From IMG/VR virus record IMGVR_UViG_3300032323_002779, positions 9,241-73,240 of that record: a stretch of DNA of 64,000 nt. One strand, written 5' to 3'. Numbering within the stretch: the stretch's first letter is position 1; every line of letters begins with the position of its first letter. The translations under genes and the position numbers were made by a program. Below the pieces are notes generated by a model. That model was not told the origin of the DNA and did not search any database. It saw only the letters and a program-made list of their open reading frames with translations. The stretch comes from a virus. Of the stretch, positions 277 through 43,017 are shown piece after piece.

Positions 277-1224
277 ATGAAAGACAGTCATATAGATTAT
301 TCAGATTACTACGAAAATGGTGGAAAAGTAGATACCAAAATACCTTTAAGAATTAGAAAAGAAATTTATGATGCGGACGGCGAAAGACGCATCGATGAAA
401 GAGCGATAGAGGTTTTAACAGACTACGCTGAAAATTTACCACAAACCAAAGACTTAAATACCAACTCAAGAACAGGAAGTTATTTTCCTGAAAGACAAAG
501 GCTTCATCGGAAAATTATGGATTCTTTTAAAAAGGATTTGGTTTGTATTGAAAATGACGAACCAATCGCTATTCTTATGGGAGGTTCTCCTGCGAGTGGA
601 AAAAGCACATTCTTGAGAAAATACGCCCCGTATTTGCTAAAAGAAGAAATTTTAAAAGTTGATGCTGACGAGATTAGAGCAAAACTTCCTGAATACAGAG
701 GTTGGAACGCAACCCAAACACATCAAGAAACCAAAGATATTGTTAATACACTTTTGAGTGATAGAACTATTGGAATTCCTTGTAAGTACGATGTTATTTA
801 TGATGGAACTATGAATAGCACCAAGAGTTATTATCCGCTAATTGCCCTATTGAAAAAATTAGGGTACAAAATCTTTATCGTTTATATCGATAAGGTTGAA
901 GAAGAAGTTATTAAAAAACGTGCTTTAGAAAGGTACAAAAAGAGTGGTCGCTTCGTCCCTATGGCGGTAATAGATGATTTCTTTACAAGGGGCAAAAGCG
1001 CACTTAACGAACTAAAAGACAAAGCGGACGGTTATATGATTGTTGACGGGTCAGGCGGAGATTACAAAGTAATTGAGCGTGGGGGAATGAGATTGCCTAA
1101 ACGCCGTGCTTACTCGAAATTGGGAGTTCCTATTGCGCAGTTAGAGAAAGAAAGTAAAATGGAAAGTGGTGGGGCTACTGAAAGCAGAACGCCTGACTAT
1201 TTAAGAATGTTTTTGGGGAAATAA
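277..1224 (+). CDS. Zeta-toxin-family P-loop kinase with C-terminal PDYLRMFLGK tag
   Basis: GGSPASGKST Walker A, VDADEIR, YDGT and R..KSGRFVP motifs; bracketed by YYENGG and KMESGG. Confidence 0.75.
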   Translation: MKDSHIDYSDYYENGGKVDTKIPLRIRKEIYDADGERRIDERAIEVLTDYAENLPQTKDLNTNSRTGSYFPERQRLHRKIMDSFKKDLVCIENDEPIAILMGGSPASGKSTFLRKYAPYLLKEEILKVDADEIRAKLPEYRGWNATQTHQETKDIVNTLLSDRTIGIPCKYDVIYDGTMNSTKSYYPLIALLKKLGYKIFIVYIDKVEEEVIKKRALERYKKSGRFVPMAVIDDFFTRGKSALNELKDKADGYMIVDGSGGDYKVIERGGMRLPKRRAYSKLGVPIAQLEKESKMESGGATESRTPDYLRMFLGK

Positions 1225-1225
1225 A

Positions 1226-2122
1226 ATGAAAAACTTCGCCTTTATATTGGTAATAGAAAACATAAAAAACCCAAACTTAATTTCAAGTGATGGGGTTAAA
1301 AACAAGTATAAAGGTGCTTACAAAAAGATTTTTGATATTTTAAATGAAGATTTTGTATTTGTTGAATTTGAAAGCGAAGACGAAGAGTTGATTGGAAACG
1401 ATTTTTACTTGTATTTCAATCTCACTCCTGATTTAGAAAAATTACAACGAATAAGTAAAATTCCAAATGTGAAAATAATTAGTCAAAGATATGGGTTAGG
1501 CGGAAGAACGATAGCCCAAACTCCTGCTCCCAAGAAAGACCGTGTTTATGGAAGCGATTTGAACAAGAGTGATTCGTCAAAAGATTTGTCAAGCGCAAAA
1601 CTAATCAAGTTTGACGAAAAGACGCTTGAGGCTATTAAAAATAAGGTTCGGGAGCATAATGAGGAACACCCTGATAAGAAAATAAACTTGTCAAGTGCTA
1701 AAGCGGTTGTTCGTAGAGGAATGGGGGCTTATTCTAAATCCCACAGACCGACTATCAAGGGCGGTAAACCGAACAGTAGAGTTGCTTGGGGATTAGCAAG
1801 ATTAAACGCCTTTACATACAAAATTGTGAACGGCAAAAGTAAGTCGGGAAAATATAACCAAGACGATGATTTGATTGAGGAATTAGGTTTTAAAGTTGCT
1901 AATTATAAAAACGGCGGAGAAATGAAAAAAGACATACGTTGTATCAACTGCGGTTGGGAATGGAATAAAAAGGATTCCGAGTTATGGGATATGTATGTTT
2001 GTCACAAGTGCGGTTTTGACAACACAACTTTCTATACTTCTATTCCTGTTAATAATTATAGCAAGGGAGGTAAAGTAGAATCGAAAAACCCTGACTATTT
2101 AAGAATGTTTTTAGGAAAATAA
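1226..2122 (+). CDS. Modular hypothetical protein (RGMGAY..SHRP..WGLARLNAF module, CxxC...CxxC zinc ribbon) with PDYLRMFLGK tag
   Basis: ORF; modules separated by YGLGG, YKNGG and YSKGG. Confidence 0.7.
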   Translation: MKNFAFILVIENIKNPNLISSDGVKNKYKGAYKKIFDILNEDFVFVEFESEDEELIGNDFYLYFNLTPDLEKLQRISKIPNVKIISQRYGLGGRTIAQTPAPKKDRVYGSDLNKSDSSKDLSSAKLIKFDEKTLEAIKNKVREHNEEHPDKKINLSSAKAVVRRGMGAYSKSHRPTIKGGKPNSRVAWGLARLNAFTYKIVNGKSKSGKYNQDDDLIEELGFKVANYKNGGEMKKDIRCINCGWEWNKKDSELWDMYVCHKCGFDNTTFYTSIPVNNYSKGGKVESKNPDYLRMFLGK

Positions 2123-2126
2123 AGAT

Positions 2127-3119
2127 ATGAGCAACAAGTTATTAGCACCTAACGGCAAACCAACCAACCTAAATGCTATGCAGTACGAATTAGTTCGTAC
2201 CCCTGCGTTTAAAAAGTGGTTTGGGGATTGGGAAAACGACCCTGCTAATGCGAGTAAAGTTGTTGATGAAAATGGAGAGCCTTTGGTTGTTTATCACGGA
2301 ACTAATAGCGATTTTACAAAATTCAGTTTAGAAAGAGTTGGTTCAAATGTTGATTACGGAATGTGGGGAAGTGGATTTTACTTTTCTCCCTTGAGGTCAT
2401 TTAGCAAATATTACGGAAGTAAGATTTTAAAATTATTTTTGAATATTAGAAATCCGTTTGTTAGGAATCCAAATATTCAAGGAAGTACTGTTCAATTCAA
2501 GCCTGTATATGGTAAAGAAGCATCTCTTAATTTAAGAAATCAAATATTATCATATAACTATGATGGTGTTTTTCAATACGAATCGGGTCAAAAAAATCCG
2601 CTTATTCAAATTGTTGCGTTTCAGCCAAACCAAATAAAACTTGCTGACGGAACTAATAGGTTGTTTGATGCTAATTCAGACGACATTAGATTTGTAAAAG
2701 GAGGAAAAGTTAAAGGGGATTGTTATTTAGTTGCAGGTCAAATTGCAATGGAAATAAGAAGTAAAAAAATTGACTACAAAGGAACGCCTTATTTGGTTCA
2801 CGCAGAAGTTAAGCATAGTACTTTAGACGGAGTTCGTTTTGGACACGCTTTTATTGAGGACGATGAAAACGTTTATGATTTTTCAAACAACAGAGAAATT
2901 ATAATGCCAAAGCAATTATACTACTATTTTGGGGACATAAACCCAAAAGACAAAAAGAAGTATAGAAAATATACTTTCAAACAGGCAAGAGAAAAAATGT
3001 TAAGTACAGGCAATTATGGTTGTTGGGATATAGATGTTGAGTTTAATAGCGGAGGGGAAATAGTTAAGTCGTACAAAATGGAAATCCCCGATTATTTAAA
3101 AATGTTTTTAGGATTTTAG
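2127..3119 (+). CDS. ART-PolyVal-like ADP-ribosyltransferase domain plus Cys-His-Asp (transglutaminase/papain-like) domain, with PDYLKMFLGF tag
   Basis: FKKWFGDW..SKVVDENGEPLVVYHGT..GFYFS..YDG..F.PNQIK; then GDCY..GHAFIE..VYD after FVKGG. Confidence 0.7.
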   Translation: MSNKLLAPNGKPTNLNAMQYELVRTPAFKKWFGDWENDPANASKVVDENGEPLVVYHGTNSDFTKFSLERVGSNVDYGMWGSGFYFSPLRSFSKYYGSKILKLFLNIRNPFVRNPNIQGSTVQFKPVYGKEASLNLRNQILSYNYDGVFQYESGQKNPLIQIVAFQPNQIKLADGTNRLFDANSDDIRFVKGGKVKGDCYLVAGQIAMEIRSKKIDYKGTPYLVHAEVKHSTLDGVRFGHAFIEDDENVYDFSNNREIIMPKQLYYYFGDINPKDKKKYRKYTFKQAREKMLSTGNYGCWDIDVEFNSGGEIVKSYKMEIPDYLKMFLGF

Positions 3120-3122
3120 GTT

Positions 3123-3674
3123 ATGGAAAATTTAGAAATTTGGAAAGACATATCCGAATATGAGGGACGCTATCAAGTATCTAATATTGGTAGAGTAAAG
3201 TCTGTTGCAAGAATAGTTGAAAGTAGAAAAGGTGTTTTCGGTAATAAAAAAGAGATTGTTTTAAAGCCAACTAAAACTAAAAAAGGATATTTAAGAATTA
3301 AACTATGTAAAGTTTTTTGCGAAAAATCTATTGAGAATAATTTTTACATACATACTTTAGTTGCTAAATCATTTTTAGAAAACCCTTTAAAAAAACCTCA
3401 AGTTAATCACATTAACGGAGTTAAAGACGATAATAGAATTGAGAATTTGGAGTGGGTTACGGGTTCTGAAAATGTAATACATTCTCTTAATAATAATTTA
3501 AAAATACCACAGAAAGGTTCTGAACACGGAATGTCAAAACTTACGGAAAAGGAGGTTTTAGAAATAAGAGCAATAGGGAGGTCAAAAACATTAAAAGAAG
3601 TTTCTTTAAAATACAATGTTGACCAATCTTTGATTAGTTCAATCTTGTTAAATAAAATTTGGAATCACGTTTAA
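3123..3674 (+). CDS. NUMOD4-HNH homing endonuclease with C-terminal HTH
   Basis: EIWKDI..YEGRYQVSNIGRVKS (NUMOD4); VNHINGVKDDNRIENLEWVT..EN (HNH). Confidence 0.9.
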   Translation: MENLEIWKDISEYEGRYQVSNIGRVKSVARIVESRKGVFGNKKEIVLKPTKTKKGYLRIKLCKVFCEKSIENNFYIHTLVAKSFLENPLKKPQVNHINGVKDDNRIENLEWVTGSENVIHSLNNNLKIPQKGSEHGMSKLTEKEVLEIRAIGRSKTLKEVSLKYNVDQSLISSILLNKIWNHV

Positions 3675-3688
3675 AAAAACAATTTAAA

Positions 3689-6600
3689 ATGCGAAAAGGC
3701 AAAATAAAATTAACTCAAAAAGAAGCAGAAAACACACCCGCAGGAGGTGTTGTTGTTGGTAAAAGAGATGGTCAAACAATGATTTATGATGACGCTTCTC
3801 TTGGAGGGTATTTTGTAGGTAAACTACATCGTGACGGGGGTATCAAAATGATTAATAAATCAACGGGACAACCTTTGGAAGTTCAAGGTTCGGAGGTCAT
3901 TATTACCGCTCCTGCCGTAAACGACCCTACTAAAAAAGAGTTTGAGGGCAAGATGATGACTAATCGTGAAATACTTTCTAAAATTAATTCGGACGGTGGT
4001 GGCGTGTCTTTTGCGGACGGAGGCGATATTCCCGCTAAAATCCATACAACTGATTGCGAATACAAATTTGGCGGAAAGTTGGTTAAAGACACCGACATAG
4101 CGCACTCTTTAGGTATGAACTCTACCTTGAAAAAAGGAAAACAACAATTTTCTTCAGGAGATACAACTTATGACGTAGATGGTATTTATAATGCTATTAA
4201 AAAGGGCAAACTTCGCTTAAAAACTAAAGAGATTGAAACTTTCCCGATGAAGTACCCTGTGTATGACAAAAATTACGCAGAAAACCACAAAATTGATTTC
4301 AGAAAACCAAACGGGATTACTGTTCGCACAGAAAGTGGCGAAGAGGTTTTGATTGACGGTAATCATAGAATGAATGATGCCTACCTAAAGGGCAGAAAAA
4401 CTATGAAAACTTATTACATCGAAGACCCAAAACAAATAGCCAAGTTTGCCAAAAAGAACAAATTTGAGTTAGGCGGGGAAAATAAAGTTGGCGGTCATTT
4501 ATCAAAAAACAAATCATTGAAGCAAATTGCTGAAATGCACAATGTTTCTTTGGCTCACATTAACGAAGAACTTGCGAAAGGTTTGGAGGTAGAGAAAGAA
4601 CATTTTTCTGATTTTAAAGAGCGCACAAGGGTTGCTAAAGACCATTTAGTAGAAAACCCTAACTATTACACTATTCTTGCTAAAGCAGGGCTTAAAATGG
4701 GTGGACGTGTTCAAAGACAAGAGTTGGTTGAGAAATCGAAAAAAGGCGATACCCCTGCAAGAGATTTGAATAATTACAATGACATTATGGATTTAGAAGC
4801 AGACGGAGCGGTAGGTGGAGATAGTGGTTTGGCTTTTGCTGATGGTGGACAGGTATCTGATTTGAAAATAGGAGATGTTCTTGAAATAGATTCAAATAGC
4901 AAGTATAGCGGACTGTCGTTGTATGTGCCGAGTGAAAACAACACTTATTTTTTTAACAACGGAACTCAATTAAAATTAGTTAAGTTAAATAGCGGGGGAG
5001 ATGAAGATTATAAGTCTTTTAGTTTAGAACAAGCGGGAGAAAAAATAATTGTTTCAATCGCAAACATAAGTTTGCAAAAAATGATTAATGAAAAATCCTT
5101 AAAAAAGGTTTCTTTTGCTGATGGCGGAATAACGCCGTATGATGCTAATGAAGAGGGGGATTCAGTTGATATTGTTGAAGACGAATTCGCAAAAGGCGGG
5201 GTGGTTTATGATACCACAAAACCAAAAATTGAAAAAGTAACTATAAAAGAAACAAGGTTTGATGCGAGTTCTCCTGTTTATTCAGGTAGCCGACAAAACA
5301 TCGTAGGTAAAATTGCTAACAATGTTTCTGAATTGCAACAAATTGTTTCTGACTACATAGGTTCAAGTCCTAAAGAAGAATACGATTGGATTAGTTTTTA
5401 TGTGAATGATGCCTCAAGAGGTAAATATTATGTAGATTTAAACAAAGACAAGAAAAACACGGTAAAAAATGTAAACCCCGAAACGCTTAATTCTGTAAAC
5501 TTTAAAAGAGTAATAGATGCTAAAGATTATTTAGTGAAAAACTACGATTGGACTGACTTTTTTGAGGGCGCAAGTAATATACCTGCTCGTAGAGGCAAAA
5601 CTGTTGAAGGAGTTAACGTGGTTTACTTTGATGTTGACGGAAAAACACGTCTAATTCAAGATGTCAGAAATCCATTTCAACTTTATAATTTTTTAAAGAA
5701 GTTATATAATGACGGTAGTCGTTATGTAGAATTACAACCAAGCGGTTATGGAATTGTTAAACAATTCCCTAAAATTATTCCAATCACTAATTCTGCTTGG
5801 CAAGACATACTTTTTGTAAAACCTGAAAAAGAGGCGGTTGAAGCAATTATGAACACACTTGCTTTTGCTCTTTTCCCTAAATTAGATTTTTCTAAATTTA
5901 ATAATAGGTCTAATATCCCTGCTTCAACTTCTGCTTACAAAGCAGACAAAGAGGTTCAGTCAGTTTTGATTAAATACGGAAAAGGCAACGAATATACCGC
6001 ATTGAACGGGGAATCTCTTTTATCTATGATGCAAGATATTTGGAACTCAAATGGCAAAACAGTAAGAACGATTCAGATACAACCTAAAGGCAGGATAGCG
6101 CAGTTGTCTGTTTTAAAAATAATTGACTTGGTTGAAAAACCTTTTAATATTGAGTATGAAATTAATCCTGATAAAATTACACTTAATGAATTAAGAGATA
6201 AATTATCAAAAGGAGAAGAATGGTACAATGACTTGGATTGGACGAGTTTCTTTAAAGAAAACACTCCTGCCTCTTCAACTTCTGTTTCATCTCCAAAAAA
6301 AGAAAATGTTGTTCAATCAGTAAGGTTAAATTTTGAAAAACAAGACGGAACGCCATATAATAAGATAACGGCAAATTCGGGCAGAGAACTCTTTAAAGAA
6401 CTTGAATATGCTGAAAATAATTGGTTGACTGCTGAAGATGATTTTTTCAGATTTCAGTTCATTGCTTATTATACGGATAGTAATGGCATTGGTAAATCTA
6501 TGTCCGAACAATTTAATTTTGGAGATAAATTTTTTCTTCCAAGTAATTGGTCTTACGACAGTTTTAGAAGATTAGTCTATTATGATTGGTTTGGTAATAA

Positions 6601-9352
6601 GTTAGATTTTAGCGAGTTTTTCCATAAAACATACATTGCTTCGAGCGAAAGAGAAGTTAGCAAAGTTACGTTGACTTACGATACAGGTGTTTTACTTAAA
6701 GAAATTTGCTATAACGGGTCTGAATTGTTTGAGGCTTACAAATTAATTGAAGAAATGGCAGAGGGCGGTTCTTTGGAGGTTAATGTTACTTTAAGCGGAA
6801 AAGATAAAAGCGGACAATTTTTTGAAACTCAAGGTACTCCTCAAGAAGTTGGTCAGGGAGGTTTTGAGCCAAGTCAAATTTATTCTTTTGAGGAATTTGA
6901 AAAATATTTTAAAAGTTTGTATAGGCGGTTTGATTTTAATAATTTCTTTAGCGGAATTACAGTTCCCAATAGTAGTGGAAATTCTGCTCAATCAACCGTA
7001 AATAGTTCGCCAATAGCAAATGCCAATAAAATATTAGGTCAAGACTTATATAACTCTAAAATTTGGATTGGAAATGATTTAAAATTAAGAGATAAGGTTT
7101 TTGAAAAACTTGTGGATTTAGGATTTGTAATTGACCGCCAATATGACGGGGATTTTGACGTGGTTGTAACTATTGACGATTACAATTTCTATGTAAGTCA
7201 AGTTTCAAGAGAGGATTTTGAAAAAAACAAATTGTTAAAAGAAATATTTCCGTCAGATTTAGGGATTGATGTTCCTGCTTCTGCTAAAGGCAAACCAATA
7301 GTTGAAAAGTTATACACCGCTAATGGAGATGTTTTTTCTAATATCGAACAGGTTAGATATTTCCTCGATAACAGAACTGCTTTTGTTGATAAAGTGTTCT
7401 TTAACGTAAATTCTTTAAATAGTCAAGATGTTTTTAGGGTTGAACTAAACGATGTAAATAGTGATTATTACTATAACAAAAGTGCAGGTTTAGAGCCTAA
7501 ATATAGAAAACTGCAAGATATATTTGAGTTGAATCCTGCTTTTAAAAATTATGATTGGGAGGAATTCTTTTCGTTTTTTTCAAATACACAAACGCCTACA
7601 ACGTCAAGTAATCCTAATAACATAGAACCTTATGATGCTTACCGAATTACTCTTATTTGGAAAGATAATTCAGGAAAGGAAATTATAGACTCTATGGATA
7701 TTTTTAATGGAGTTAGTGGAGCATTTTTCATATCTCGATTAAAAGAAATAGAAGAGCAGTCACAAGGTAAAGATGTAGAGGTTATAATAAGAGCATTTGC
7801 TAATGATGACGAGGGCAATCAATTTGAAAAAAATGATTATTTTACTATTGGAGAAATTTGGTTTAAGCCAAGCACAAGAACAAATGAGGAAATAAAATCA
7901 GTTGTTGAAGAATGGATTGACGGAGTTAATTTTGACAAGTATTTTGCAGATGTGATTCCTTTAAGCGGAAGCCAATCATCTGCTACTCAATACAAGCCTA
8001 TCGACTTATCTCAAACTAAAATTTGGATTGGAGATAATAGAGATGTTAGCAAACAGATACAGGAAAGAGTGTTTGAACTTGGTTGGTCTTGGAAAAATTT
8101 AGCATTGCCTACAAGTCCAAATTATATGTTTCAACCTGCTCTTTATTTTCATAGCGACAAAGACATAAGTTACGGAGATGATAAGCAGTTGTTTGATAGC
8201 AATAAAGATTTCAAGGAAATTACTTTAGAAGACTTGTTTGCTAAAATCGAACCTGCACAAATCACACAAACGCCTACTGTAAGTGGTGTGTCAGGCTCGG
8301 TTAAGGAAATTAACAATTTGAAAGAAGCCGTTGATGTTTTAGAGGGAATCGCTTCACAAGCATCTCAAAAATACAATACCAAAAAATATGAGGAAAGTTT
8401 AGAGTTGTTAAAACAAGTAAAAGAGGAATACGCACTTGCTTTAAGTTTTACTCCTGAAAGTTCATTTATGTATGAGCGAATTGAGTTGATGAAGAAAATA
8501 ACCGAAATCCAAAAGGAAATCACAAGGATTACCGAGTTGAAAAACGGCGGAGCGTACTATATTTTGTCCAAAGTAATTGAAAGATTGAACAGAGGGGAAA
8601 ATTGGAAAGAACTTGGAAACGGCGAGATAATGGTTAATGAAGTTCCTCAACAAGAAATCGATACGGTTATTTATACCGAAAAATTCAAAAATTGGTTTGG
8701 AGATTGGGAACAAGCATTAATTACAAAAGAGTATGATTATGTGAGTAAAGCATTAACCGAAAGTGGAAAGCCTTGTGTGATGTATCACGGAGCGAAACGT
8801 ATTAAATTCTCTTATCGACAAGTTAGCAACGGGGTTGTTTATTTGGCTGAAAACAGAAGTTATGCGGAATGGTTTAGCGCAAATGAAAGTCCTTATCAAA
8901 AGCAGGGGGATTATTTAACGCAATGTTTCGTAAATCTTAAAAATCCGATTGATTTAACTCCTTTTGGGGTAGAGGAAGTTGATTTAAGAGATATTATACA
9001 ATACATTGATGCTTTATACCCACTTGCTAAAATCTATGATGTGTTGCCTCCAAATACGGCTATGGCAATTATGAATAATCAGTTGATTGGAAGAAACTTT
9101 AGGGCTTGGTACATAATTAGACAATTCCCTGAATTAAACAAGCACATAAGAGATAATACAACTTATGATGGATTTATTTATTATGAGAACAACCCAAGCG
9201 ATATGATTAGGACTGAATCAGGGGAGTTTGTAGAGAACGTAACCAAAGCAACTGCCGTGTTTAATTCAAACCAAGTAAAATTGGTAGATGCGATGTTGTT
9301 TGACAGTTCTTTAGACGATTGGAGATTTGAAACAGGAGGAAAAGTAAATTAA
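3689..9352 (+). CDS. Large polyvalent protein (~1887 aa): ParB-like, DUF5661-like, internal repeats and C-terminal ART-PolyVal-like domain
   Basis: ATG 3689 preferred over TTG 3659; LIDGNHR; GLEVEKEH..AKDHLVENPNYY; FKNWFGDW..MYHG; about 9 GG motifs. Confidence 0.75.
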   Translation: MRKGKIKLTQKEAENTPAGGVVVGKRDGQTMIYDDASLGGYFVGKLHRDGGIKMINKSTGQPLEVQGSEVIITAPAVNDPTKKEFEGKMMTNREILSKINSDGGGVSFADGGDIPAKIHTTDCEYKFGGKLVKDTDIAHSLGMNSTLKKGKQQFSSGDTTYDVDGIYNAIKKGKLRLKTKEIETFPMKYPVYDKNYAENHKIDFRKPNGITVRTESGEEVLIDGNHRMNDAYLKGRKTMKTYYIEDPKQIAKFAKKNKFELGGENKVGGHLSKNKSLKQIAEMHNVSLAHINEELAKGLEVEKEHFSDFKERTRVAKDHLVENPNYYTILAKAGLKMGGRVQRQELVEKSKKGDTPARDLNNYNDIMDLEADGAVGGDSGLAFADGGQVSDLKIGDVLEIDSNSKYSGLSLYVPSENNTYFFNNGTQLKLVKLNSGGDEDYKSFSLEQAGEKIIVSIANISLQKMINEKSLKKVSFADGGITPYDANEEGDSVDIVEDEFAKGGVVYDTTKPKIEKVTIKETRFDASSPVYSGSRQNIVGKIANNVSELQQIVSDYIGSSPKEEYDWISFYVNDASRGKYYVDLNKDKKNTVKNVNPETLNSVNFKRVIDAKDYLVKNYDWTDFFEGASNIPARRGKTVEGVNVVYFDVDGKTRLIQDVRNPFQLYNFLKKLYNDGSRYVELQPSGYGIVKQFPKIIPITNSAWQDILFVKPEKEAVEAIMNTLAFALFPKLDFSKFNNRSNIPASTSAYKADKEVQSVLIKYGKGNEYTALNGESLLSMMQDIWNSNGKTVRTIQIQPKGRIAQLSVLKIIDLVEKPFNIEYEINPDKITLNELRDKLSKGEEWYNDLDWTSFFKENTPASSTSVSSPKKENVVQSVRLNFEKQDGTPYNKITANSGRELFKELEYAENNWLTAEDDFFRFQFIAYYTDSNGIGKSMSEQFNFGDKFFLPSNWSYDSFRRLVYYDWFGNKLDFSEFFHKTYIASSEREVSKVTLTYDTGVLLKEICYNGSELFEAYKLIEEMAEGGSLEVNVTLSGKDKSGQFFETQGTPQEVGQGGFEPSQIYSFEEFEKYFKSLYRRFDFNNFFSGITVPNSSGNSAQSTVNSSPIANANKILGQDLYNSKIWIGNDLKLRDKVFEKLVDLGFVIDRQYDGDFDVVVTIDDYNFYVSQVSREDFEKNKLLKEIFPSDLGIDVPASAKGKPIVEKLYTANGDVFSNIEQVRYFLDNRTAFVDKVFFNVNSLNSQDVFRVELNDVNSDYYYNKSAGLEPKYRKLQDIFELNPAFKNYDWEEFFSFFSNTQTPTTSSNPNNIEPYDAYRITLIWKDNSGKEIIDSMDIFNGVSGAFFISRLKEIEEQSQGKDVEVIIRAFANDDEGNQFEKNDYFTIGEIWFKPSTRTNEEIKSVVEEWIDGVNFDKYFADVIPLSGSQSSATQYKPIDLSQTKIWIGDNRDVSKQIQERVFELGWSWKNLALPTSPNYMFQPALYFHSDKDISYGDDKQLFDSNKDFKEITLEDLFAKIEPAQITQTPTVSGVSGSVKEINNLKEAVDVLEGIASQASQKYNTKKYEESLELLKQVKEEYALALSFTPESSFMYERIELMKKITEIQKEITRITELKNGGAYYILSKVIERLNRGENWKELGNGEIMVNEVPQQEIDTVIYTEKFKNWFGDWEQALITKEYDYVSKALTESGKPCVMYHGAKRIKFSYRQVSNGVVYLAENRSYAEWFSANESPYQKQGDYLTQCFVNLKNPIDLTPFGVEEVDLRDIIQYIDALYPLAKIYDVLPPNTAMAIMNNQLIGRNFRAWYIIRQFPELNKHIRDNTTYDGFIYYENNPSDMIRTESGEFVENVTKATAVFNSNQVKLVDAMLFDSSLDDWRFETGGKVN

Positions 9353-9358
9353 AAAAAA

Positions 9359-12117: not shown

Positions 12118-12120
12118 GAT

Positions 12121-13710: not shown

Positions 13711-13711
13711 G

Positions 13712-13987
13712 ATGATAGAAGAAGTAACAAAGCGGAAAAAATATTACCAAGATTTTGGTAAACATAAAAACGTGTCTTTAAGTAAAGTTGAGGTGTTGAA
13801 GCACCCTGAAATTCCAAACACTTTTTTTATTCACGTCAATTACCATATTGGAGAGGGCGGTATTTACAAGGAAACAGAGATACTTGAAACATACATTCCT
13901 GAAAAGGGTTGGCAAAGTTTAGAAGACGGAATGACAAGGTTGGAATACGGTGCTTTTTTAGGCGATTTAAAGCCAACAGAAATTTAA
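13712..13987 (+). CDS. Hypothetical protein
   Basis: 91-aa ORF tightly packed in the operon. Confidence 0.7.
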   Translation: MIEEVTKRKKYYQDFGKHKNVSLSKVEVLKHPEIPNTFFIHVNYHIGEGGIYKETEILETYIPEKGWQSLEDGMTRLEYGAFLGDLKPTEI

Positions 13988-14003
13988 TTTTAAAAGGTAA
14001 GAG

Positions 14004-15134: not shown

Positions 15135-15149
15135 TTAAAAATTAAAAAT

Positions 15150-21100: not shown

Positions 21101-23495
21101 TCCAATAATTACCAAAGAGCAATTAGAGAATCAATACAAAATGGCTGACGGCGGAAGTACAGGTTCAGGTTTAGACCCTGTAAAAGTAAAAGTAGTTATG
21201 GCGGTAGGTCTTGATAGCGCAATTGAGTTCTATGATGCTGACTACCCAATCAGACCTTATCAGTTACTTGAAAGAGCAGTAAGAGCAGGTTATATTACTC
21301 TTGACGAAATAAACGAAAGAGTTGTTGATTCTGCTATGGAAACTGCTCAAGATAGCGAAGATATGGAGGAAGTCGGAAGTAGTGATTTTGGGGCTTATTT
21401 GCGTGATTTTTTAGACGAAGCAGGTTTTAAAGTTGGATATGTAAATGGTCGATTGACACGAGAGTATGCTAACGGCGGATTTATGAATGATGTTTATGCT
21501 AAAGGTGGTATATTTAATGACAATAACGCAAGTGTTTTTGGTTCTATTTTCCCGATTGGAACTGAATTTAAAAGCGGAATTTACAGAACAAATATTGGAA
21601 TAATAGGTGTTACCGATGTAAAAAACATTAATGGGTACGATTGGCATATTGTAACAAAATTACCTTACTACGAGGGTGGTCTAACTACTTACGCTTATGC
21701 AGGTAAGTTTGTAAATGCAGGTAAATTACGTCCGCTTAATAACTACCATTATAAAAGCAAAGGCGACCCTATGATTAAATTATATAAGGATAAAAAAGAA
21801 CCATTAAGAAATTCTGTAAAAAAGGTTGAAAAACAACATCTTTTGGCATTAGAAATTTTTAAAGAAAAAATGGAAAAAGGGGACTTTTCAGATAATAGTT
21901 TTGAAAATGATGTTTATGCTGACGGCGGATTTATGAATAATGTTTATGCTGACGGCGGTGGTGTTGATATGTTTTCAGAATTTGAATTAGACAAAAACGG
22001 AAATTTTTCTTCAACAATAAACGGTAAAAATTATGAAATAATTTACCGAGATGATAAAAGCCAATTGTATGACCTTTTTGAAAATGGAAAAAAAATAAGA
22101 AGCAGTAAATCTCTCCGTGATTTAATGAAATTTCAAAAATTTGCTGACGGCGGATTTATGAACGATGTTTATGCTGACGGTGGAGATTTAAGTGGTGTAG
22201 AACTGAATTTTACATTTGATACAGAGGGAGATGCTGAATATGAATATCCGCAAGAAGTTGAAAAAATTAGACTTTTGAGAGAAAGAATTAATTTTGATGA
22301 AGTTAGAGGTTCTATTGATTACGGAAAGACCAAAGACAATACTAATTTGGAGTTTTATAAAAACGGTAAATTGGTTATGACTTTGAAAGGAGATTACGAT
22401 ACCGCTTCTGAAATTTTAGATACTGATGTTGAAATTTTAGGTTCTAAACACAAAATTAACTACCACCCTTACGATGGTATGGGAGGTGTAGATTACTACG
22501 CTCTTAAAAGCCAATTAGAAAAAACGGTTTTTGCTGACGGCGGAAGTACCGAGCAAAATAATTGGTTAGAAAACCTACCTTATAAATTTGCTATTGATTT
22601 CGCTAATAAATTAGCAAAAAAAACACATAAAGACGTATTTGTTTACTACTATAAGCACGATGATTCTTATGCGATAGACACAAAACCTTTAACTAATGAA
22701 AGAAAACACTATGAGTTAAAAGAAATCGTAAAATATTCGGACGGCGGTTTTATGAATGATGTTTATGCTAAAGGTGGTTCAGCAGATAGTCTTTCTGTAA
22801 ATAAAGCAAGTATTCTTTCTGCGACAAAAAAATGTACTGACGGAGATTCTGATAGAAGCACTTGTCAAAGCGGAAATTTTGAAGTAACTATGGTTTATGA
22901 TTACGGTACATTAGATTTAGATTTTGTTTATTTGGACTATAATAATCCAAGATTTAATCCGTCTAAAGAGCATTACGCTTCTTATAGTTTTACAAAAGGA
23001 GGTAAAGGAGTTTTAACTGATTTTGACCAAACTGTATATACTAAACAAGGAAGAAGAACAGATGCGAAAACAATTATTTCAAAAACTATTGATGTGTTAA
23101 AATCTTTAGGCTATCCTGTTGATTTAATTGTAGATTCAGATGGAGAGGAAATACAAGATGCTAAATATGCTAACGGCGGAATTTTTGACGACAATGACGG
23201 GTTTATGAGAGCAGACAATAATAGAAATTTCAGATACCCTGAAATGGAAGTTTATGTAGAAACTTTTGAAGAACCGATTGATTTGACGAGCAATATTAGT
23301 GTTCAAACAAATGAGGTTGTTGTTAGACCTCTTGACGAAGACATCGATTTAAGCGATGATGGTAGAATAAGAGCAAGAATGACACAATCACATAGAGGTT
23401 CTGCTGAAAGTTTTTCTAAAATAAATCCAAGAGCATTTGAGTTTATTGGCGAAGAATTACCAATGCCTATATCTCACACACATAAAAACGATTAA
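15150..23495 (+). CDS. Giant modular polyprotein (2781 aa) with about 30 [FYML]xxGG motifs
   Basis: Long ORF; repeated YADGG/FADGG/YAKGG/YANGG between unrelated modules. Confidence 0.85.
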   Translation: MNATLLKKYETIDQSKVSEKDKKVLEQVKKLTNSFEETDEAKNKVAEKILDQITMLNPDAVKKPQVVAQKVAKAKKVAKAKKPATTSTAKGSGNNIMSVAKEIQKAGESWKDAMERAKQVLKERREKVVEQKKTELEKLYALVKTKKELQGFAKSDIQRDAVRDAKPRGARVVTKAGKTYNQYGEWDNKIGRKYWETRDRHSDRLAPNYPKDMPKLASGGAVSDAPFSVEVFKTKLRFDNQLPSSSKGDFPTFAKAKEFAIDMIDNGNYYAYINSKNGYLWGVDSKGVEQFADGGMFNTNVHSGTAFMDNAYFADGGELDDEMLKSIYSITELTSKREHKAYIALQNKNNKYDIIFEPYEKYINNREDYKDYKKLYQAGVRHLDGTPYYDNGGNVGQKKYQVQYNVGNVKYLVSFHDGIQKHKDGSNFYEIRTFNNKKDLEDFLNKLSKQGYREMGYNTAFDNGGMFEAPIAKMKEVKGKTVSVPVSEEIYSSEINEFVNYVDSFYGKKGIYAEDLNGGFTKAEIRKAVNKYIENLNSNGTWGGGDSLDRERVRQILQPSYSLLENGGGIDGGMNKLTIQDVSFANGGGVGKMPEWSVSITSEDGDTYDWVGFAKNEDDALYKAEQEAGFESVESGINEITDADGNKIEYANGGSLPFMTDPNFGNFQDTGMFESGGSMANLTEQEFLKQYFGVNVFTENPSQYFEIKKMSSSNDDKIDAFVKELKADGFTVKKRAYSDFTSVMGVKKKGSYELGGAFVMTDLAGHTGGSDGLGNPMPLSGTSGTYYTGLVGETGAMSSGELFARGGAVGDNVLGLKKGDIYKIIDTFHTASYDTTMSVFTFIDYEDKYGEIVLKSIPFPPNPKRKNDFIYVSDVSSDGIKILNDEEIGQVISRKYKNFVQNNYEAGGVMAQNQQVINDASQPYVITEAFGNPAQQLGMLAKGGSIENQYEGRTPEDVWDNWTEKQKIHFLLDHISNKEIVKSSNLEEICKLTGSELMDFENRKIIDGIKVVDIRNALVIHVREGQYAKGGSIPNNYEGREPEDIWNNWDLSQKLHFLSDHTEEVYGRISVKGETNDEINEFFGKLIYKKYEDLPLNTKFALVMHTTRGQYASGGSLGEELMGGQSNATLKPSGYHLVSAKGREIIVSDDGGNSKERWVKNNGFSGYRLVYKGNDYEFTDSFEGGGMFDPNVSDGTQFMNGVYANGGSIEEGDKVTITTSSLGKDYVGMSGTITSRKLLNDKYSVRLSNGLEMAFSKDEFKHNSINPRFAKGGFVGTVEFNAGDIVWQKDEKRYAFVMNNYGDPINGSSGEIRLDTTGNTPIFTYNKNFTKETGYNLVKLGEKGDTGKFTPEVLAEMKEQGKKYLDSAKSNKGSQQKENIAYIEKVVRRTLDGEFDDMVKPTISSETTYVPNADVKELSVVVKGELKNLTGSDIVNGVYIKNTGKSTPKADANAVFAKILKDAKEAKVGKSKKFDATDLKKINLEMVQKLVEAGYTEQQIRNIIFGYAFDNEIIADNELEYDNGIFSYEESYVAQKVDGLVQAKKENEFVLGIEYPDFDWQGIIKKYKISSKPKDLVRKLRAGSWGHTEYFYEVFVGENIVLGHNYGYKNFDADGKVKDDYIEKGKKVSDPTKQNAWQKEREYRAGFNGGYWYIVSSKIEIIDDVLKTLLAQKGGYCKEISFYDDNFAETLTENKISFADGGAIGIGKNGYVAFYKGKRIEVYADTMYEAQKTASQHFKARKDYDVNVVLAEVDGKPYINSTMFADGGSMSEDVSECKKLVSAFCKEFGDKFGLNEEAILEKVKFRDYLGYGASVFVSLSVSSNVTDLKVGETRPTGGYIIFTSDINPNGVTGKDDIARTYTIDIEIKGSKRYTQRRTEEGRYFKSYNYGRTIEEAMDKTDTKIIYDLYPLEKKDDLKFKMSHLFADGGGVSGKLESGVYRVGKPTKVSANLYEQKIAEIFDNGDISTASDYGRKLGDFKSQKYPIITKEQLENQYKMADGGSTGSGLDPVKVKVVMAVGLDSAIEFYDADYPIRPYQLLERAVRAGYITLDEINERVVDSAMETAQDSEDMEEVGSSDFGAYLRDFLDEAGFKVGYVNGRLTREYANGGFMNDVYAKGGIFNDNNASVFGSIFPIGTEFKSGIYRTNIGIIGVTDVKNINGYDWHIVTKLPYYEGGLTTYAYAGKFVNAGKLRPLNNYHYKSKGDPMIKLYKDKKEPLRNSVKKVEKQHLLALEIFKEKMEKGDFSDNSFENDVYADGGFMNNVYADGGGVDMFSEFELDKNGNFSSTINGKNYEIIYRDDKSQLYDLFENGKKIRSSKSLRDLMKFQKFADGGFMNDVYADGGDLSGVELNFTFDTEGDAEYEYPQEVEKIRLLRERINFDEVRGSIDYGKTKDNTNLEFYKNGKLVMTLKGDYDTASEILDTDVEILGSKHKINYHPYDGMGGVDYYALKSQLEKTVFADGGSTEQNNWLENLPYKFAIDFANKLAKKTHKDVFVYYYKHDDSYAIDTKPLTNERKHYELKEIVKYSDGGFMNDVYAKGGSADSLSVNKASILSATKKCTDGDSDRSTCQSGNFEVTMVYDYGTLDLDFVYLDYNNPRFNPSKEHYASYSFTKGGKGVLTDFDQTVYTKQGRRTDAKTIISKTIDVLKSLGYPVDLIVDSDGEEIQDAKYANGGIFDDNDGFMRADNNRNFRYPEMEVYVETFEEPIDLTSNISVQTNEVVVRPLDEDIDLSDDGRIRARMTQSHRGSAESFSKINPRAFEFIGEELPMPISHTHKND

Positions 23496-23507
23496 TTTAG
23501 AAATACT

Positions 23508-26500
23508 ATGAAGTTATTTAATAAAACAATAGATAGACAATTATTTAGTCAATATTCACTTGGTAGCGACCTCTCTAAACAAGAGGTTGTTGTCAAGATA
23601 TTTAATCCTCAAGGCGCAGGGACGTGGTTTATATTAAATTCCGACCCTGAAGACCCTGATTACCTTTGGGCTATTGTTGATTTGGGGTATGGTGCTGAAG
23701 TTGGTTCGGTTAGCCGTAGTGACCTTGAAAATTATCGTGGTCGATTTGGATTAGGCTTTGAGCGTGATTTGTCTTTTGACCCTATAAACGCATTAGAACT
23801 TTATCAAGGGCTTCTTAATGGAGAATATTATGCTGACGGCGGAAACCTTTCAAGAGATAGAAAATTCTTGAATCATAGACAGAAATACGAAGTTCGTTAT
23901 TCAAAGGGTAAAAATCGAAAAGGTTATGGTTATGCTGACGGTGGGGATATTTCAAGCGAATTACAAGATTTGTTTTCTAAAATGAAAAACAGTTTAAGTA
24001 AAAAAGATTTTGATTCTTTTAATGAATTATCTAATCAAGTTCACGAAATATCTGATTCAAGGGGATTAAATGAAGAGGAGTACGATTTATGGGATTCTTT
24101 AAGAGAAGAAGAAAGAAACTTGCAAATGGAAAATTTTTTAAATAAATCTAAATATGCTGACGGTGGCGACATTGAAAGTTTTAGCGATAACCAACGTATG
24201 ATTATGAATCAAAACGTTGAGGTAGAGCATCATCACGAGGAATTAGAGGATATTTTAGAAGACGAAGTAGAAGTACCTGCTTGGGTTGTCGCAAAAATGG
24301 AAACCGCAACACAAAACCTTTCAGACATTACTCATTACCTTGACGGACAAAAAGAGATAATGGAAGACCAATTAGAGGGAGATGATGACGATGATGACGA
24401 TGATGACGATGATGATGAAATGACGGAAATCGAAAACAAAGAAGTTGTCGAACCAATAAATGTTTCTGCGGGAACAAAGGCAGAATTGACTAAAAAGTTT
24501 ACTGATGATGCTTGGGGGAACTTGAGAGGTTTCTTGAAAGGTATGGAGGGAATTGACCTGCGTGACGATTATACGTTTGATTACAAGGACGAACAGTTTG
24601 AAGTTGAGCCAATCATTAACTCTGATGAAAATGGTGTTTCTAATGCCGTGTTTACGATTTTTGACGGGGACGGAGAAGAACAAGGAGAGATTAGTTATAG
24701 CCGTGAGGGTGGAAAACAAAAGTTTACTGCTAACTCTGATTATTTTGAGTGGAGAAATGCGAAGTTTGAAGACGGCGGGTATTTTGACGGAACTATCCCG
24801 AATGTTTCAACCTATATGAGTACTTATGCTGATGGTGGAGAAATAAATCTTTGGAAGAGCGAACCAAATAACAAACCTGAAAAATTAAAAACTTTTAAAT
24901 CATTACGGGCTTTTAATGCGTATATGACTAAAAACGCTAAATCCTTTAGAGATGAACATTCTAAAAATGGTGCAGGATTTTATGGGTTTGAAGCAGATGC
25001 TACTCAACAAGAAGTTGAAAGAAGTTTAGAAAATTTATATACTTCTGAAAATCAATATGCTGACGGTGGATTTATGGCTAATGTTTACGCAAAAGGCGGA
25101 GAAATTGCCAAAGCAGAAATTCTTGGTTTGAGCAAAAACATAATGGGAACTACTGATATTGAAATGAAAATTTCAGGAATGAGAAAATCTCAAGACTTCA
25201 TTGTTTACCCAATTAGCAAAGACGATACAGATAAAATTATTACTATTCAATCTTCTACGAGAATTGGTAAAATTGATTTAAGTTCAGGTCGTGGATTAAT
25301 GAGCCAAAGCCATTCTAACGGTGCTTACTTTGTGCATTTCCAAATGGACAAACTTACTCCTTTTATGTTAAGTGAAAGTGATTTACAAGACCTAAAATCT
25401 CACATATTTAAAACTGCGGGAGATAATGTAGGTTCGAGAGGTATTGTTTCTGATAATTCAGGGGCTTCAAGAATATTTGCTGACGGAGGAGAAGTTACGC
25501 CAAAATTAAATATGGAAATAACAAAAAGAGCAGAAGAAATTTATGCTAAAAATGGCGGTAAAACAAAAAAAGACTTTGACATAGCGTATGATAAGGCAAT
25601 AAAAGAATTTGGCTACGACCCTGAATATTTCAAAAAAGAAATGCGGGAAATTGGTTCAGAATATGGGTCTGAAGATGATGATTTTTACGCAAAAGGCGGA
25701 GAAGTTTATTCGCACAAACATAGTAAAGGTTGGGGCGAGGACATAACTATTGAGTTGTTACAACCTACGGCTAAAGGTTGGAAAGTTAAGCAAACCACTA
25801 AAAAAGGAAGAAAAACATCAACCAAAACTGCCTTTTTCAGTAAAGAAGAAATAAGCGAACTATTTGAAAAACAATATGCAAAAGGGGGAATTACTTACTA
25901 CAAAAGCGAAAATGAACGTTTAAGCAGACCTAAAAGCGATATGGAGGAAGAGGTTTTTCAAAAAGTAAAAAACCAAATCAACCCTGAATTATTTGTTGGG
26001 AACTTTGGTTGGAAAACCCCGATGAACAAAACTACTTATGGGTATTTGTATTCGTTGGACGACTTCGACAAAGATTATGTGAAAGACGTAAAACTTAAAC
26101 AGGGAGAGGTAATTTTTAGATACGTCACTCGTATTACGGCTATTGGCGGAATGATGCCTTTTATTAAGATAAACATTGAAAAAGGGCTTTTGTATTTTCC
26201 TGTTTCAAACGATAATGATGATATAATTTTTGAAACAAAAGGCGTGACTCCGTTGTGGATAAGTTTAATCGAGGATAGTTTCGCTAAAGGCGGAATTGTT
26301 GTTACTTCAATCAAAGATATACCGAATTTTGAGGAAAGGTTGAATCAAGGTAAAATAACTTATCGTGGATTAGGTTTGGGCAAATTATTTGATGATTTCT
26401 ATGAATTAACAGGAACAACGGGAACAAGAATAAAAGTTGACGGAAAAGAATACTATATTACCGATGAAGAATTTAAAACTTTCTCAAGAGATGCTGACGG

Positions 26501-27761
26501 AAAATTGAGAGTCCGTTTTGATGCGCCTTATAGAAAAGGATATGCTAACGGTGGAGGGATAGGTTTTATTCCTATGGATTTAGAAGAAACTTTGCGTATT
26601 ACGGCTAAATGGGGCGGAACTGACATCAAGGGTGTTATTGGTATTTTAAATGCTATGATTGATTCAGGTTTGACAGACGAAGATTTACAACCAAAACCAA
26701 CAAAATCGGGTAGCGCATATCAAAACGCACTCGCAAAAAAGACAAAAGAAATTTGGGCTAAAATTGAGCCGAATTACAAAGGCGACTTCAAAGGCTATAT
26801 GTATTATAGCACTATTCTTCACTTGGTTGAAAGGTCAACAACTTCTGATAATACTTTGAAGCGATTTAAACCTTTCAGAAAGTATCAAAAAGATTCTTAT
26901 GCTGACGGTGGTTTTATGAATGATGTTTATGCTGACGGCGGACAAATCAGAGTTGGCGACAGATTTAAGTACGATTGGACTGACGGCAGAACAGGTGGTG
27001 TGAGAGGTTATGATGTTGTTGAGGTAATAAAAAGCAACGCCACAAGTAGCAGGGACTTCAAAACTAAAGTTATGGTTTTGAAAGTAATTGAAAGTTCAGA
27101 CCCAAGCAACGTTGGACGAATAGATGAAGACCTTAAACCAAGTTTCAAAAAAGCAATTAGATTAGGTATGATAGTGCCGTTGCAAGAAAGAAGAAGAAAA
27201 ATGGTTGACGAATTTTACGCTAAAGGAGGAATGTCAAAATTTGAGAAACTTTCTGCTAAAGTGGCTAAAGAGTACGAGGGTAAACCCGTAAAAAGCGAAT
27301 ATCAAGACGAATACGGTAAAGTTTATTCTAAAGCGGAGGCGCAAGAAGTGGGCGACAAAGTTGCAGGAAAAGTAAAGGCGATGCAAACTGATAAAAAATC
27401 ATTTGGAGGCTTTTTTAGCGGGGCGAAAAAGTTGGTAACTCCGAGCAAAAATTACCCTAATTTAAGAGGCAAACAGGTTATGCTAAAGTCAGGTAAATAT
27501 GTTCAGGTTTTTGAACAAATGGACAACAAAATAAGTATTGTAGAGTTGGGCAAAATAGGTTCAGGCGTAAGACCACATTATATTGACATTTCTGAAGTTG
27601 ATATGGATTCTTTTAAAGCAGGAGGTAAAATTGCAAGGAAAAGAGTGAACGGCGGAACTGAAACCCTAAAAAGAGCAAATGAATTGGCTAAAAAAATCCG
27701 TAAAGACGGAGAAAGTTGGTTAGACGCTAAAAAAAGAGCGTTTGCGCAATTGAAAAAATAA
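23508..27761 (+). CDS. Modular polyprotein (1417 aa) with N-terminal DUF2958-like domain and about 16 GG motifs
   Basis: VVKIFNPQGAGTWF..DLGYGAEVGSVS..L..GLGFERDLSF; repeated [YF]A[DK]GG. Confidence 0.85.
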   Translation: MKLFNKTIDRQLFSQYSLGSDLSKQEVVVKIFNPQGAGTWFILNSDPEDPDYLWAIVDLGYGAEVGSVSRSDLENYRGRFGLGFERDLSFDPINALELYQGLLNGEYYADGGNLSRDRKFLNHRQKYEVRYSKGKNRKGYGYADGGDISSELQDLFSKMKNSLSKKDFDSFNELSNQVHEISDSRGLNEEEYDLWDSLREEERNLQMENFLNKSKYADGGDIESFSDNQRMIMNQNVEVEHHHEELEDILEDEVEVPAWVVAKMETATQNLSDITHYLDGQKEIMEDQLEGDDDDDDDDDDDDEMTEIENKEVVEPINVSAGTKAELTKKFTDDAWGNLRGFLKGMEGIDLRDDYTFDYKDEQFEVEPIINSDENGVSNAVFTIFDGDGEEQGEISYSREGGKQKFTANSDYFEWRNAKFEDGGYFDGTIPNVSTYMSTYADGGEINLWKSEPNNKPEKLKTFKSLRAFNAYMTKNAKSFRDEHSKNGAGFYGFEADATQQEVERSLENLYTSENQYADGGFMANVYAKGGEIAKAEILGLSKNIMGTTDIEMKISGMRKSQDFIVYPISKDDTDKIITIQSSTRIGKIDLSSGRGLMSQSHSNGAYFVHFQMDKLTPFMLSESDLQDLKSHIFKTAGDNVGSRGIVSDNSGASRIFADGGEVTPKLNMEITKRAEEIYAKNGGKTKKDFDIAYDKAIKEFGYDPEYFKKEMREIGSEYGSEDDDFYAKGGEVYSHKHSKGWGEDITIELLQPTAKGWKVKQTTKKGRKTSTKTAFFSKEEISELFEKQYAKGGITYYKSENERLSRPKSDMEEEVFQKVKNQINPELFVGNFGWKTPMNKTTYGYLYSLDDFDKDYVKDVKLKQGEVIFRYVTRITAIGGMMPFIKINIEKGLLYFPVSNDNDDIIFETKGVTPLWISLIEDSFAKGGIVVTSIKDIPNFEERLNQGKITYRGLGLGKLFDDFYELTGTTGTRIKVDGKEYYITDEEFKTFSRDADGKLRVRFDAPYRKGYANGGGIGFIPMDLEETLRITAKWGGTDIKGVIGILNAMIDSGLTDEDLQPKPTKSGSAYQNALAKKTKEIWAKIEPNYKGDFKGYMYYSTILHLVERSTTSDNTLKRFKPFRKYQKDSYADGGFMNDVYADGGQIRVGDRFKYDWTDGRTGGVRGYDVVEVIKSNATSSRDFKTKVMVLKVIESSDPSNVGRIDEDLKPSFKKAIRLGMIVPLQERRRKMVDEFYAKGGMSKFEKLSAKVAKEYEGKPVKSEYQDEYGKVYSKAEAQEVGDKVAGKVKAMQTDKKSFGGFFSGAKKLVTPSKNYPNLRGKQVMLKSGKYVQVFEQMDNKISIVELGKIGSGVRPHYIDISEVDMDSFKAGGKIARKRVNGGTETLKRANELAKKIRKDGESWLDAKKRAFAQLKK
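24381..24416 (+). repeat. GAT/GAC repeat encoding poly-Asp (about 12 residues)
   Basis: gatgatgacgatgatgac... Confidence 0.9.
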
Positions 27762-30046: not shown

Positions 30047-30064
30047 TCATTAAAATCGAATAAA

Positions 30065-42990: not shown

Positions 42991-43017
42991 AAAACATTAA
43001 TCAATAAATCAAAAAAA

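Follow-up and report, generated by a model that had tools for sequence, protein, structure and literature searches.

A recurrent seven-residue Gly-Gly peptide separates the modules of virus-encoded polyvalent proteins and is a candidate processing site

In a 64,000-nucleotide stretch of viral DNA (hereafter the window; bases 9241-73240 of the 73,240-bp virus record IMGVR_UViG_3300032323_002779, G+C ~34%), six open reading frames (ORFs), three small (o1, o2 and o3) and three giant (A, B and C; Table 1), encode polyvalent proteins in the sense of Iyer et al. (2017; PMC5512222). We find that a short recurring peptide built around Gly-Gly, referred to here as the seam, very probably delimits independent modules within these chains. 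The seam is likely to be a recognition site and not a mere hinge, because it follows a fixed seven-residue pattern, is under selection at the peptide level, and sets off leaders and tags at the ends of proteins. Cleavage of the seam by a zincin-like metallopeptidase encoded in the same window is the best single mechanism that we can offer, and we put its probability at about one half.

The preliminary description of the window had put the number of motif copies at ~60, a figure that closer counting bears out: the six ORFs contain 68 copies of [FYML]xxGG, as compared to ~9.8 expected from shuffles carried out within each protein (2000 each). By ORF, the counts are 2 in o1, 3 in o2, 2 in o3, 11 in A, 34 in B and 16 in C, with shuffle means of 0.33, 0.29, 0.51, 1.65, 4.68 and 2.33, respectively. 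The strict form, [FY]A[DKNSR]GG, occurs 39 times with ~0.1 expected; B holds 21 copies, C 14 and A 4 (shuffle means 0.05, 0.02 and 0.02; highest count in any single shuffle 2, 2 and 3), and o1, o2 and o3 have none, their copies being looser. A profile drawn from 49 sites begins with Y (55%) or F (45%), continues with A (80%; otherwise E, D or S) and then D (47%), K (20%) or N (16%), and reaches two glycines that are each present in 100% of sites; any residue may follow, after which V, I, M, F or L is found in 86%. The gap between motif copies ranges from 10 to 594 residues. Six double seams of 15 residues (e.g., YADGG-FMNDV-YADGG) are present in B and C, and other neighboring seams are 20-23 residues from one another, with a second spacer, likewise conserved, in between. 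In A, the motifs are limited to residues 118-510, which FADGG and FAKGG punctuate, and to three isolated loose copies, such that ~1100 residues (515-1626) hold just one. A further copy, at residue 7 of a 376-amino acid (aa) ORF (14004-15134), probably arose by chance, as two relatives have YKEGN in its place.

The motif had been described as falling between unrelated modules, and domain coordinates place it exactly there. It follows DUF2958 in C (residues 26-99 by Pfam; motif at 108) and both ART-PolyVal domains (o3 residues 47-177, Pfam E 4.5e-22, motif at 189; A residues 1701-1877, motif at 1890), and it flanks the Zeta_toxin domain of o1 on both sides (residues 90-254, Pfam E 3.7e-25; motifs at 12 and 295). 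ART-PolyVal, Zeta_toxin, DUF2958, DUF5661 and several PHROG families lie in separate inter-seam segments, with PHROGs adding three small families within A and B. None of the nine stretches of these ORFs matched by Pfam or PHROG contains a motif, and several stop 3-13 residues short of one (DUF5661 ends at 341, motif at 345; phrog_7799 ends at 561, motif at 564). Inspection of an AlphaFold model of C residues 500-699, computed from a 17-row alignment, shows a predicted local distance difference test (pLDDT) score below 50 at model residues 1-31 and 141-165, which contain all three seams, and of 79-92 across the module core (model residues 33-140), a low pLDDT being in itself no proof of disorder. 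The model thus suggests neither a motif placed inside a folded domain nor a repeat fold, two of the outcomes that had been named as fatal to the proposal.

Homology among relatives breaks at the same positions. BLASTP comparisons were made with 18 giant ORFs from 10 related loci (10 of 15, the duplicate contigs L003, L004, L011 and L013 and the window's own record, L010, having been left out of this test and of the module counts). In B, 43 of the 61 internal ends of high-scoring segment pairs (HSPs) lie within 8 aa of a motif, as against 20% at random positions, and in C the figure is 34 of 52, as against 19%; since the sequences share ancestry, neither these ends nor the orthologous site pairs considered below are independent observations. 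In A, just 2 of 14 homology break points fall at a motif (9% at random). The B- and C-type ORFs of relatives vary in length from 1168 to 3282 aa and retain the motif, and cutting 21 giant ORFs at the motif yields 303 segments of at least 35 aa that group into 147 families (95 with a single member) arranged along a conserved frame. Alignment of C residues 200-700 with five relatives shows that the segment between the seams at ~440 and ~527 is swapped for unrelated sequence in three of them, with the neighboring modules 80-100% conserved; within the linkers, spacer units of 10 and 20 residues, each ending in GG, are gained or lost. In two relatives, G1 and G2, the o2 and o3 modules are found in a different order in a single ORF of 764/769 aa, whose C-terminal part corresponds to o2 residues 52/85-298, and the o1 of G1 possesses one added module and one added seam ahead of its C-terminal tag. 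The tblastn matches of o3 in tailed phages end at approximately residue 183-210, and gp61 of Mycobacterium phage Barnyard covers residues 194-321 alone.

A check for stand-alone copies of inter-motif segments, which the preliminary description had suggested, shows that C residues 532-656 (the 'family 7' module) exist as a separate, motif-less ORF in three more distantly related viral contigs, of 126 aa (L038:1531-1908), 124 aa (L039:1489-1860) and 125 aa (L040:1513-1887). These ORFs, which are marked by the pattern MRKxQDF…QSxTRIG…GAY…DNSxA, start where the upstream seam would end and stop where the next one would begin, and they contain no seam; a fourth stand-alone copy is P0134 (140 aa). 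A search of the family 7 fold against the PDB returned nothing at E ≤ 0.001. Two of the three contigs have Arg/Ala-rich flanks, a composition that suggests a higher G+C content. Taken together, HSP ends, module swaps, segment families, gene fusions, the stand-alone gene and the AlphaFold model uphold the view that the ORFs string together small modules, independent and for the most part unrelated, with the motif at their boundaries.

Within this framework, the seam itself is preserved as a peptide. Across 65 orthologous site pairs, the codons of the first and second Gly have undergone 28 and 30 synonymous changes, respectively, as against 6 and 4 non-synonymous ones; the non-synonymous share is 20% at the Ala position, 40% at the aromatic position (Y/F swaps counted) and ~50% in the surrounding linker. 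Because the changes in the Gly codons are mainly synonymous, selection keeps the peptide within an otherwise fast-changing linker.

Seams also mark off the ends of these proteins. The N-terminus of o1 (277-330) carries a leader of 11-16 residues, …DYSDYY[AE]xGG, that is kept, together with the motif and the tag, in G1 and G2. At the opposite end, three unrelated proteins (1192-1224, 2090-2122 and 3087-3119) share the tag PDYL[RK]MFLG[KF], located 6-11 residues past the last seam, and relatives have PDYLEMFLGK, PEYLKMFLGK or PDYLKMFLDL, the tag being kept despite module additions or gene fusion; A, B and C are without it. This tag may serve as a loading or docking peptide. Three small homologues (P0059, P0061 and P0123) have an alternative ending past the last seam, …Y[TS]IGGL, and chains often terminate right at a seam, A itself ending in FETGG plus three residues. 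Four others (P0068, P0074, P0115 and P0145) have a hydrophobic helix (MLPFIL.AIGGY…) at the start, then a seam at 23-40, then modules, a layout that, judged from sequence, looks like a membrane anchor, a seam and cargo. Among 144 Met-starting homologues, five combine a hydrophobic helix with a seam at 23-40.

We propose that the six ORFs would constitute polyvalent effector strings, that is, chains of independent small modules, some of them recognizable as host-modifying enzymes, joined by the sequence hydrophobic/aromatic-[A/E]-x-G-G-x-hydrophobic in what would be a flexible linker. The corresponding grammar would consist of a short leader, a seam, a repeated unit of module plus seam, and an optional C-terminal tag. 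With one seam common to all modules, relatives can also gain, lose, rearrange, divide and join them without leaving the reading frame. The seam would be a recognition site held by selection on the peptide, for which a virus-encoded processing protease is the likeliest reader; the zincin-like protein at 45132-45917 would then cut the strings into separate proteins and strip off leaders and tags, either during maturation of the particle or after delivery. That the strings travel in the particle we infer from their domain types (ART-PolyVal, Zeta toxin and DUF2958) and from the position of their genes upstream of particle genes. The proposal in its fullest form, namely that a widespread, uncultured lineage of bacterial viruses uses an in-trans zincin that reads, in each genome, over 60 sites bearing one code of seven residues (hydrophobic-A-x-G-G-x-hydrophobic), thereby freeing ~60 effectors, removing leaders and tags and permitting in-frame cassette exchange, is one that we advance tentatively, with the odds somewhat against it.

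The candidate reader emerged from a scan of all ORFs for the HExxH pattern, no Pfam or PHROG family having been assigned to it beforehand. Its homologues number 940, and of the 120 among them that were listed nearly all measure 260-264 aa; H188, E189, H192, N196, E202, E204 and D206 are invariant across 41 sequences with identities down to 58% (58-92%). Identity to the orthologue is 88.5% in G1 and 94.6% in G2, which places the gene among the best conserved of the genome. A predicted model (pLDDT 89) shows a β-sandwich (residues 1-96), a helix, four strands, a helix bearing the HExxH (179-194) and a helix bearing the Glu residues (202-215). This order of secondary structure fits the zincin-like metallopeptidase (MPTase) core as given in the main text of Iyer et al. 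(PMC5512222), which consists of an N-terminal helix, a small β-sheet and two C-terminal helices. Weak Pfam matches were to SprT-like (13 of 41 members, best E 0.01) and Peptidase_M48 (4 of 41, best E 0.016). Prediction of a complex between the 261-aa protein and C residues 500-545 gave a score of 0.00, which amounts to no verdict for or against binding.

Elsewhere, A, B and C contain no HExxH or HxxEH and no peptidase family by Pfam, and no peptidase emerged when the giants and four neighboring ORFs were compared with Pfam at E ≤ 5. Ten G1 ORFs that lie outside the window's record gave matches to glycosyl- and sulfotransferases, Phg_2220_C and β-propeller repeats, with no protease among them. 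A second HExxH (residue 102 of the ORF at 9359-10705) was rejected, as it is conserved in neither G1 nor G2. On sequence and predicted structure, the 261-aa protein is the best candidate for a reader of the motif.

Several observations nonetheless argue against this assignment, limit the weight of the evidence for it, or can be accounted for equally well without it. Structural alignment (VIA-align) of residues 109-255 with M48 peptidases returns BepA (Z 8.3 over 121 aa, root-mean-square deviation 4.2), 3c37 (Z 6.7) and ZMPSTE24 (Z 6.2), values that lie within the range that the tool calls common; a Foldseek search with the 261-aa model returned nothing at E ≤ 0.001, and no Pfam family scores above its gathering threshold for the protein family (41 members). 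Of further records that bear the motif, the one searched, the distant G006, encodes the protein (E 1e-102), and neither of two complete records with a seamless stand-alone module does; this pattern is consistent with a link, but it is confounded by common descent and the sample is tiny. M48/SprT-like zincins are not known to prefer Gly-Gly, and no known Gly-Gly-specific protease family was found in the record with the Peptidase_C48 and C5 models, in the records of five relatives with C48, or among the best 25 of 52 Pfam families of 90 ORFs. At the DNA level, seam codons are skewed, with GAC used for 18 of 23 Asp residues (background 37%), GGC for 27 of 49 first glycines (background 17%) and GGA for 27 of 49 second glycines, and the six doublets are 84% identical in DNA; given this skew and identity, seams are also copied as DNA. 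Such copying would be explained by a plain recombination seam, and it is as expected if seams accompany modules when these recombine. Seams in tandem, at a distance of 10 or 20 residues, together with genes that start or end at a seam, fit gene fission at a linker as well as they do processing. Finally, a 233-aa β-rich protein (39693-40394) begins with ~45 extra residues that are conserved and in which FSNADG and FFRADGG occur; in its G006 counterpart (63% identical) the first is kept as FANADG and the second reads FYGADAS, and because of that change the link of this protein to the seam is weak. A loose pattern, '[FY]x(1-2)AxG', occurs in other particle proteins 33 times versus 14 expected (overlaps double-counted), and was set aside as too weak to connect with the seam.

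The same codon bias and near-identical doublets are what one would anticipate if the seam were never cut and acted as a conserved hinge, allowing modules to fold independently, providing the same in-frame module ends for cassette shuffling and leaving the giants to act as whole multi-enzyme strings. The gain, loss and replacement of modules exactly at seams also suits such a hinge, and there is precedent for intact transfer: N4 virion RNA polymerase, ArdC and TraC1 are given in the main text of PMC5512222 as transferred unprocessed. A hinge, however, has no need of a fixed aromatic-Ala-x-Gly-Gly-x-hydrophobic pattern, nor of selection on a peptide in which nearly half of the Gly codons have changed synonymously; moreover, seams set off leaders (11-16 residues) and tags (10-16 residues) at the extreme ends of chains, where a hinge is superfluous, and the seam is absent from stand-alone versions of a module. 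We therefore regard an uncut hinge as a genuine but unlikely alternative.

Recognition without cutting would leave the same signature as cleavage. If a capsid protein, a membrane protein, a chaperone or some other factor that loads or anchors the chains bound the seam, the many copies of the seam would provide for multivalent packaging, and both the C-terminal tags that adjoin a seam and the homologues in which a seam follows an N-terminal hydrophobic helix are compatible with this role. Tandem and extreme-terminal seams, however, have no obvious use in docking, and a docking handle offers no part for the conserved protease-like protein encoded among the particle genes; we hold this explanation to be doubtful, and more so than the hinge.

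Adenovirus, African swine fever virus (ASFV; pp220/pp62) and poxviruses use Ulp1/adenain-type cysteine proteases to cut polyproteins at Gly-Gly within particles; adenovirus also releases a short C-terminal peptide beside a Gly-Gly site, and the adenain consensus is (M/I/L)-x-G-G|x or (M/I/L)-x-G-x|G (in which the bar denotes the cut). The preliminary description had drawn this analogy, and the invariant Gly-Gly with an upstream hydrophobic residue does loosely resemble the consensus. The comparison nevertheless lacks support in its enzyme: the Peptidase_C48 and C5 models found no candidate in the 73-kb record, and C48 found none in the records of five relatives, two of which are estimated complete, although remote homologues could escape these hidden Markov models and C57 and C63 were not searched. 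Pfam scans revealed no cysteine-protease family in the giants or, among the best 25 of 52 families, in 90 other ORFs, and no C39 family appears in the Pfam outputs shown, a dedicated C39 search not having been made. In addition, the hydrophobic residue sits one position further from Gly-Gly than in the consensus and is followed by Ala (80%), and giant C lacks Cys altogether. Cleavage after Gly-Gly by an adenain-like protease is accordingly very improbable here, and the present system would differ from those of adenovirus, ASFV and poxviruses in having a metalloprotease candidate, modules that are effector-like instead of core structural, and a bacterial host. Lastly, we give almost no credence to the motif being part of a structural repeat fold (a β-roll or cell-wall-binding repeat), since the fixed 10-residue spacing of the doublets and the hydrophobic residue at +2 after Gly-Gly (86% V/I/M/F/L) that might suggest one are set against a spacing that otherwise extends to 594 residues, intervening sequences that are unrelated (95 of 147 families singletons), seams of low model confidence without regular secondary structure, and known domains that lie between seams and never across them.

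The proposed cleavage of the seam by an in-trans zincin can be compared with other virus-encoded processing systems. The polyvalent proteins of Iyer et al. (PMC5512222) are, as here, giant virus-encoded chains of unrelated effector domains; in the main text of that study, zincin-like HExxH+Glu peptidases are predicted to process them, and a zincin-like MPTase domain is found within ~36% of polyvalent proteins. In the present case, by contrast, the peptidase is a separate, conserved 261-aa protein and not a domain of the strings, and the ~34 seams of B far exceed the 2-15 domains per protein given there; the main text of PMC5512222 describes no seam peptide. With respect to that expectation, the enzyme in the window would act in trans, and its site can be named.

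Tailed phages process internal and ejection proteins with serine prohead proteases, as exemplified by T4 gp21, which relies on a capsid targeting sequence, and by the head proteases of the phiKZ/SPN3US type; T4/phiKZ-type sites end in Glu (L/I-x-E or A-x-E). The likeness lies in a short site and a particle-associated protease, with the seam-set leaders and tags here acting, potentially, as the targeting sequence does in T4, whereas T4-type substrates are cut once or a few times and not 16-34 times. Pfam scans found no prohead protease family in the giants or, among the best 25 of 52 families, in the 90 ORFs. Polymorphic toxins have a junction of their own, VENN in CdiA and PxxxxDPxGL in Rhs, the latter being a cleavage site as well. 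They resemble the strings in placing a short conserved peptide at the exchange point of variable modules; CdiA and Rhs, however, have a single junction before one C-terminal toxin, as opposed to up to 34 junctions per chain and internal exchange.

Relatives of the C-type chain are numerous. A HMMER search with C residues 100-1299 recovered at least 1958 clusters (50% identity) at E ≤ 0.001, 242 of them at E ≤ 1e-30; of the best 150, 148 contain the loose motif and 138 contain [FY]AxGG one or more times, at 1.15 loose motifs per 100 residues. The ten clusters examined are all metagenomic 'hypothetical proteins'. Two ART-bearing polyvalent proteins of tailed Bacteroides phages, crAss-like cr85_1 (2518 aa) and BF1-TP2 gp68 (3633 aa), contain no [FY]AxGG, so that the seam is not general to polyvalent proteins or to such hosts; it is specific to this lineage. 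The literature searched contains no description of such a seam, and the supplementary alignments of PMC5512222 could hold relevant linkers.

All ORFs of at least 150 aa in the window are on the + strand, and the record is syntenic with viral contigs of 77-102 kb. The six ORFs lie directly upstream of lytic enzymes and particle genes on the same strand; interspersed among the six are an HNH endonuclease and four conserved genes, one of which encodes an AAA_5 ATPase. The HNH/NUMOD4 endonuclease gene (3123-3674) sits between o3 and A and overlaps the TTG start of A; its best match in G1 is at another place (45% identity) and G2 has none, and it is probably a mobile homing endonuclease. Searches of A, B and C against PDB chains by sequence gave nothing at E ≤ 1, tblastn of C matched six records in the DUF2958 part alone, and megablast of 40000-64000 against a phage collection gave no match. 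Among 90 further ORFs, Pfam identified SLT (2 members), Peptidase_M15_3, GDSL lipase, PAP2, PAS, glycosyltransferases and others (best 25 of 52 families), with an M15-type cell-wall peptidase at 30490-31131 and no other protease family in that list. In the rest of the record, PHROG scans identified nothing that is clearly a capsid, portal or tail gene.

Table 1. Positions of the six seam-bearing ORFs, of selected features of giant C, and of the candidate reader (window coordinates).
Feature	Coordinates	Strand	Description
o1	277..1224	+	315 aa; 11-residue leader, YENGG, Zeta-toxin-like P-loop kinase module, MESGG, C-terminal tag PDYLRMFLGK
o2	1226..2122	+	298 aa; three modules with YGLGG, YKNGG and YSKGG between; same tag as o1 at end
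o3	2127..3119	+	330 aa; ART-PolyVal module, FVKGG, second module (194-305), FNSGG, tag PDYLKMFLGF
Giant A	3659..9352	+	1897 aa from TTG; 1887 aa from ATG at 3689
Giant B	15150..23495	+	2781 aa; 34 seams, 21 strict
Giant C	23508..27761	+	1417 aa; N-terminal DUF2958, then 16 seams, 14 strict
Double seam YADGG-FMANV-YAKGG	25056..25100	+	C residues 517-531; AlphaFold pLDDT <50
'Family 7' module	25101..25475	+	C residues 532-656; folded unit; stand-alone gene elsewhere
Candidate motif reader	45132..45917	+	261 aa; N-terminal β-sandwich and zincin-like metallopeptidase core, HEFAH 188-192, E202/E204

Other features of the window bear recording alongside these. One module of o2 is Cys-rich and zinc-ribbon-like, and a conserved module of C (residues 221-419; 24168-24764) has a His/acid-rich stretch (…HHHEELEDILED…) and a run of ~10 Asp that differs in length among relatives. 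At 60103-63998 are two Gly-rich proteins (686 aa and 608+ aa) with 51 and 54 GG pairs and repeated F[IV]GGG units, whose G1 counterparts are 1078 and 1451 aa long; they are probably fibers or spikes, their GG pairs unrelated to the seam. β-roll, hexapeptide and UspA1-repeat families appear in the Pfam summary of the 90 ORFs without assignment to particular ORFs. Five small ORFs (29915-30196 and 42568-43542) have in common a leader of ~37 residues that includes a membrane helix and ends in GF[YF]xA[SV]G, and carry variable Cys-rich tails after it.

Polyvalent proteins are regarded as arsenals that phages and plasmids inject, and how they are loaded, disassembled and diversified is largely conjecture; the case described here supplies an explicit, testable grammar and a named candidate enzyme. 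Cutting at the seam, if it occurs, would give polyvalent proteins their first defined cleavage code and would mark an unusually large polyprotein system for a bacterial DNA virus, and seams would parse hundreds of small anti-host modules, giving domain boundaries without structures. Even an uncut seam is a clear example of a junction, defined at the level of the peptide, through which modules can be exchanged in frame. Should cutting in trans prove true and the particle be non-tailed and membrane-containing, the system would represent a bacterial counterpart, built on another class of enzyme, of the Gly-Gly maturation of adenovirus and ASFV.

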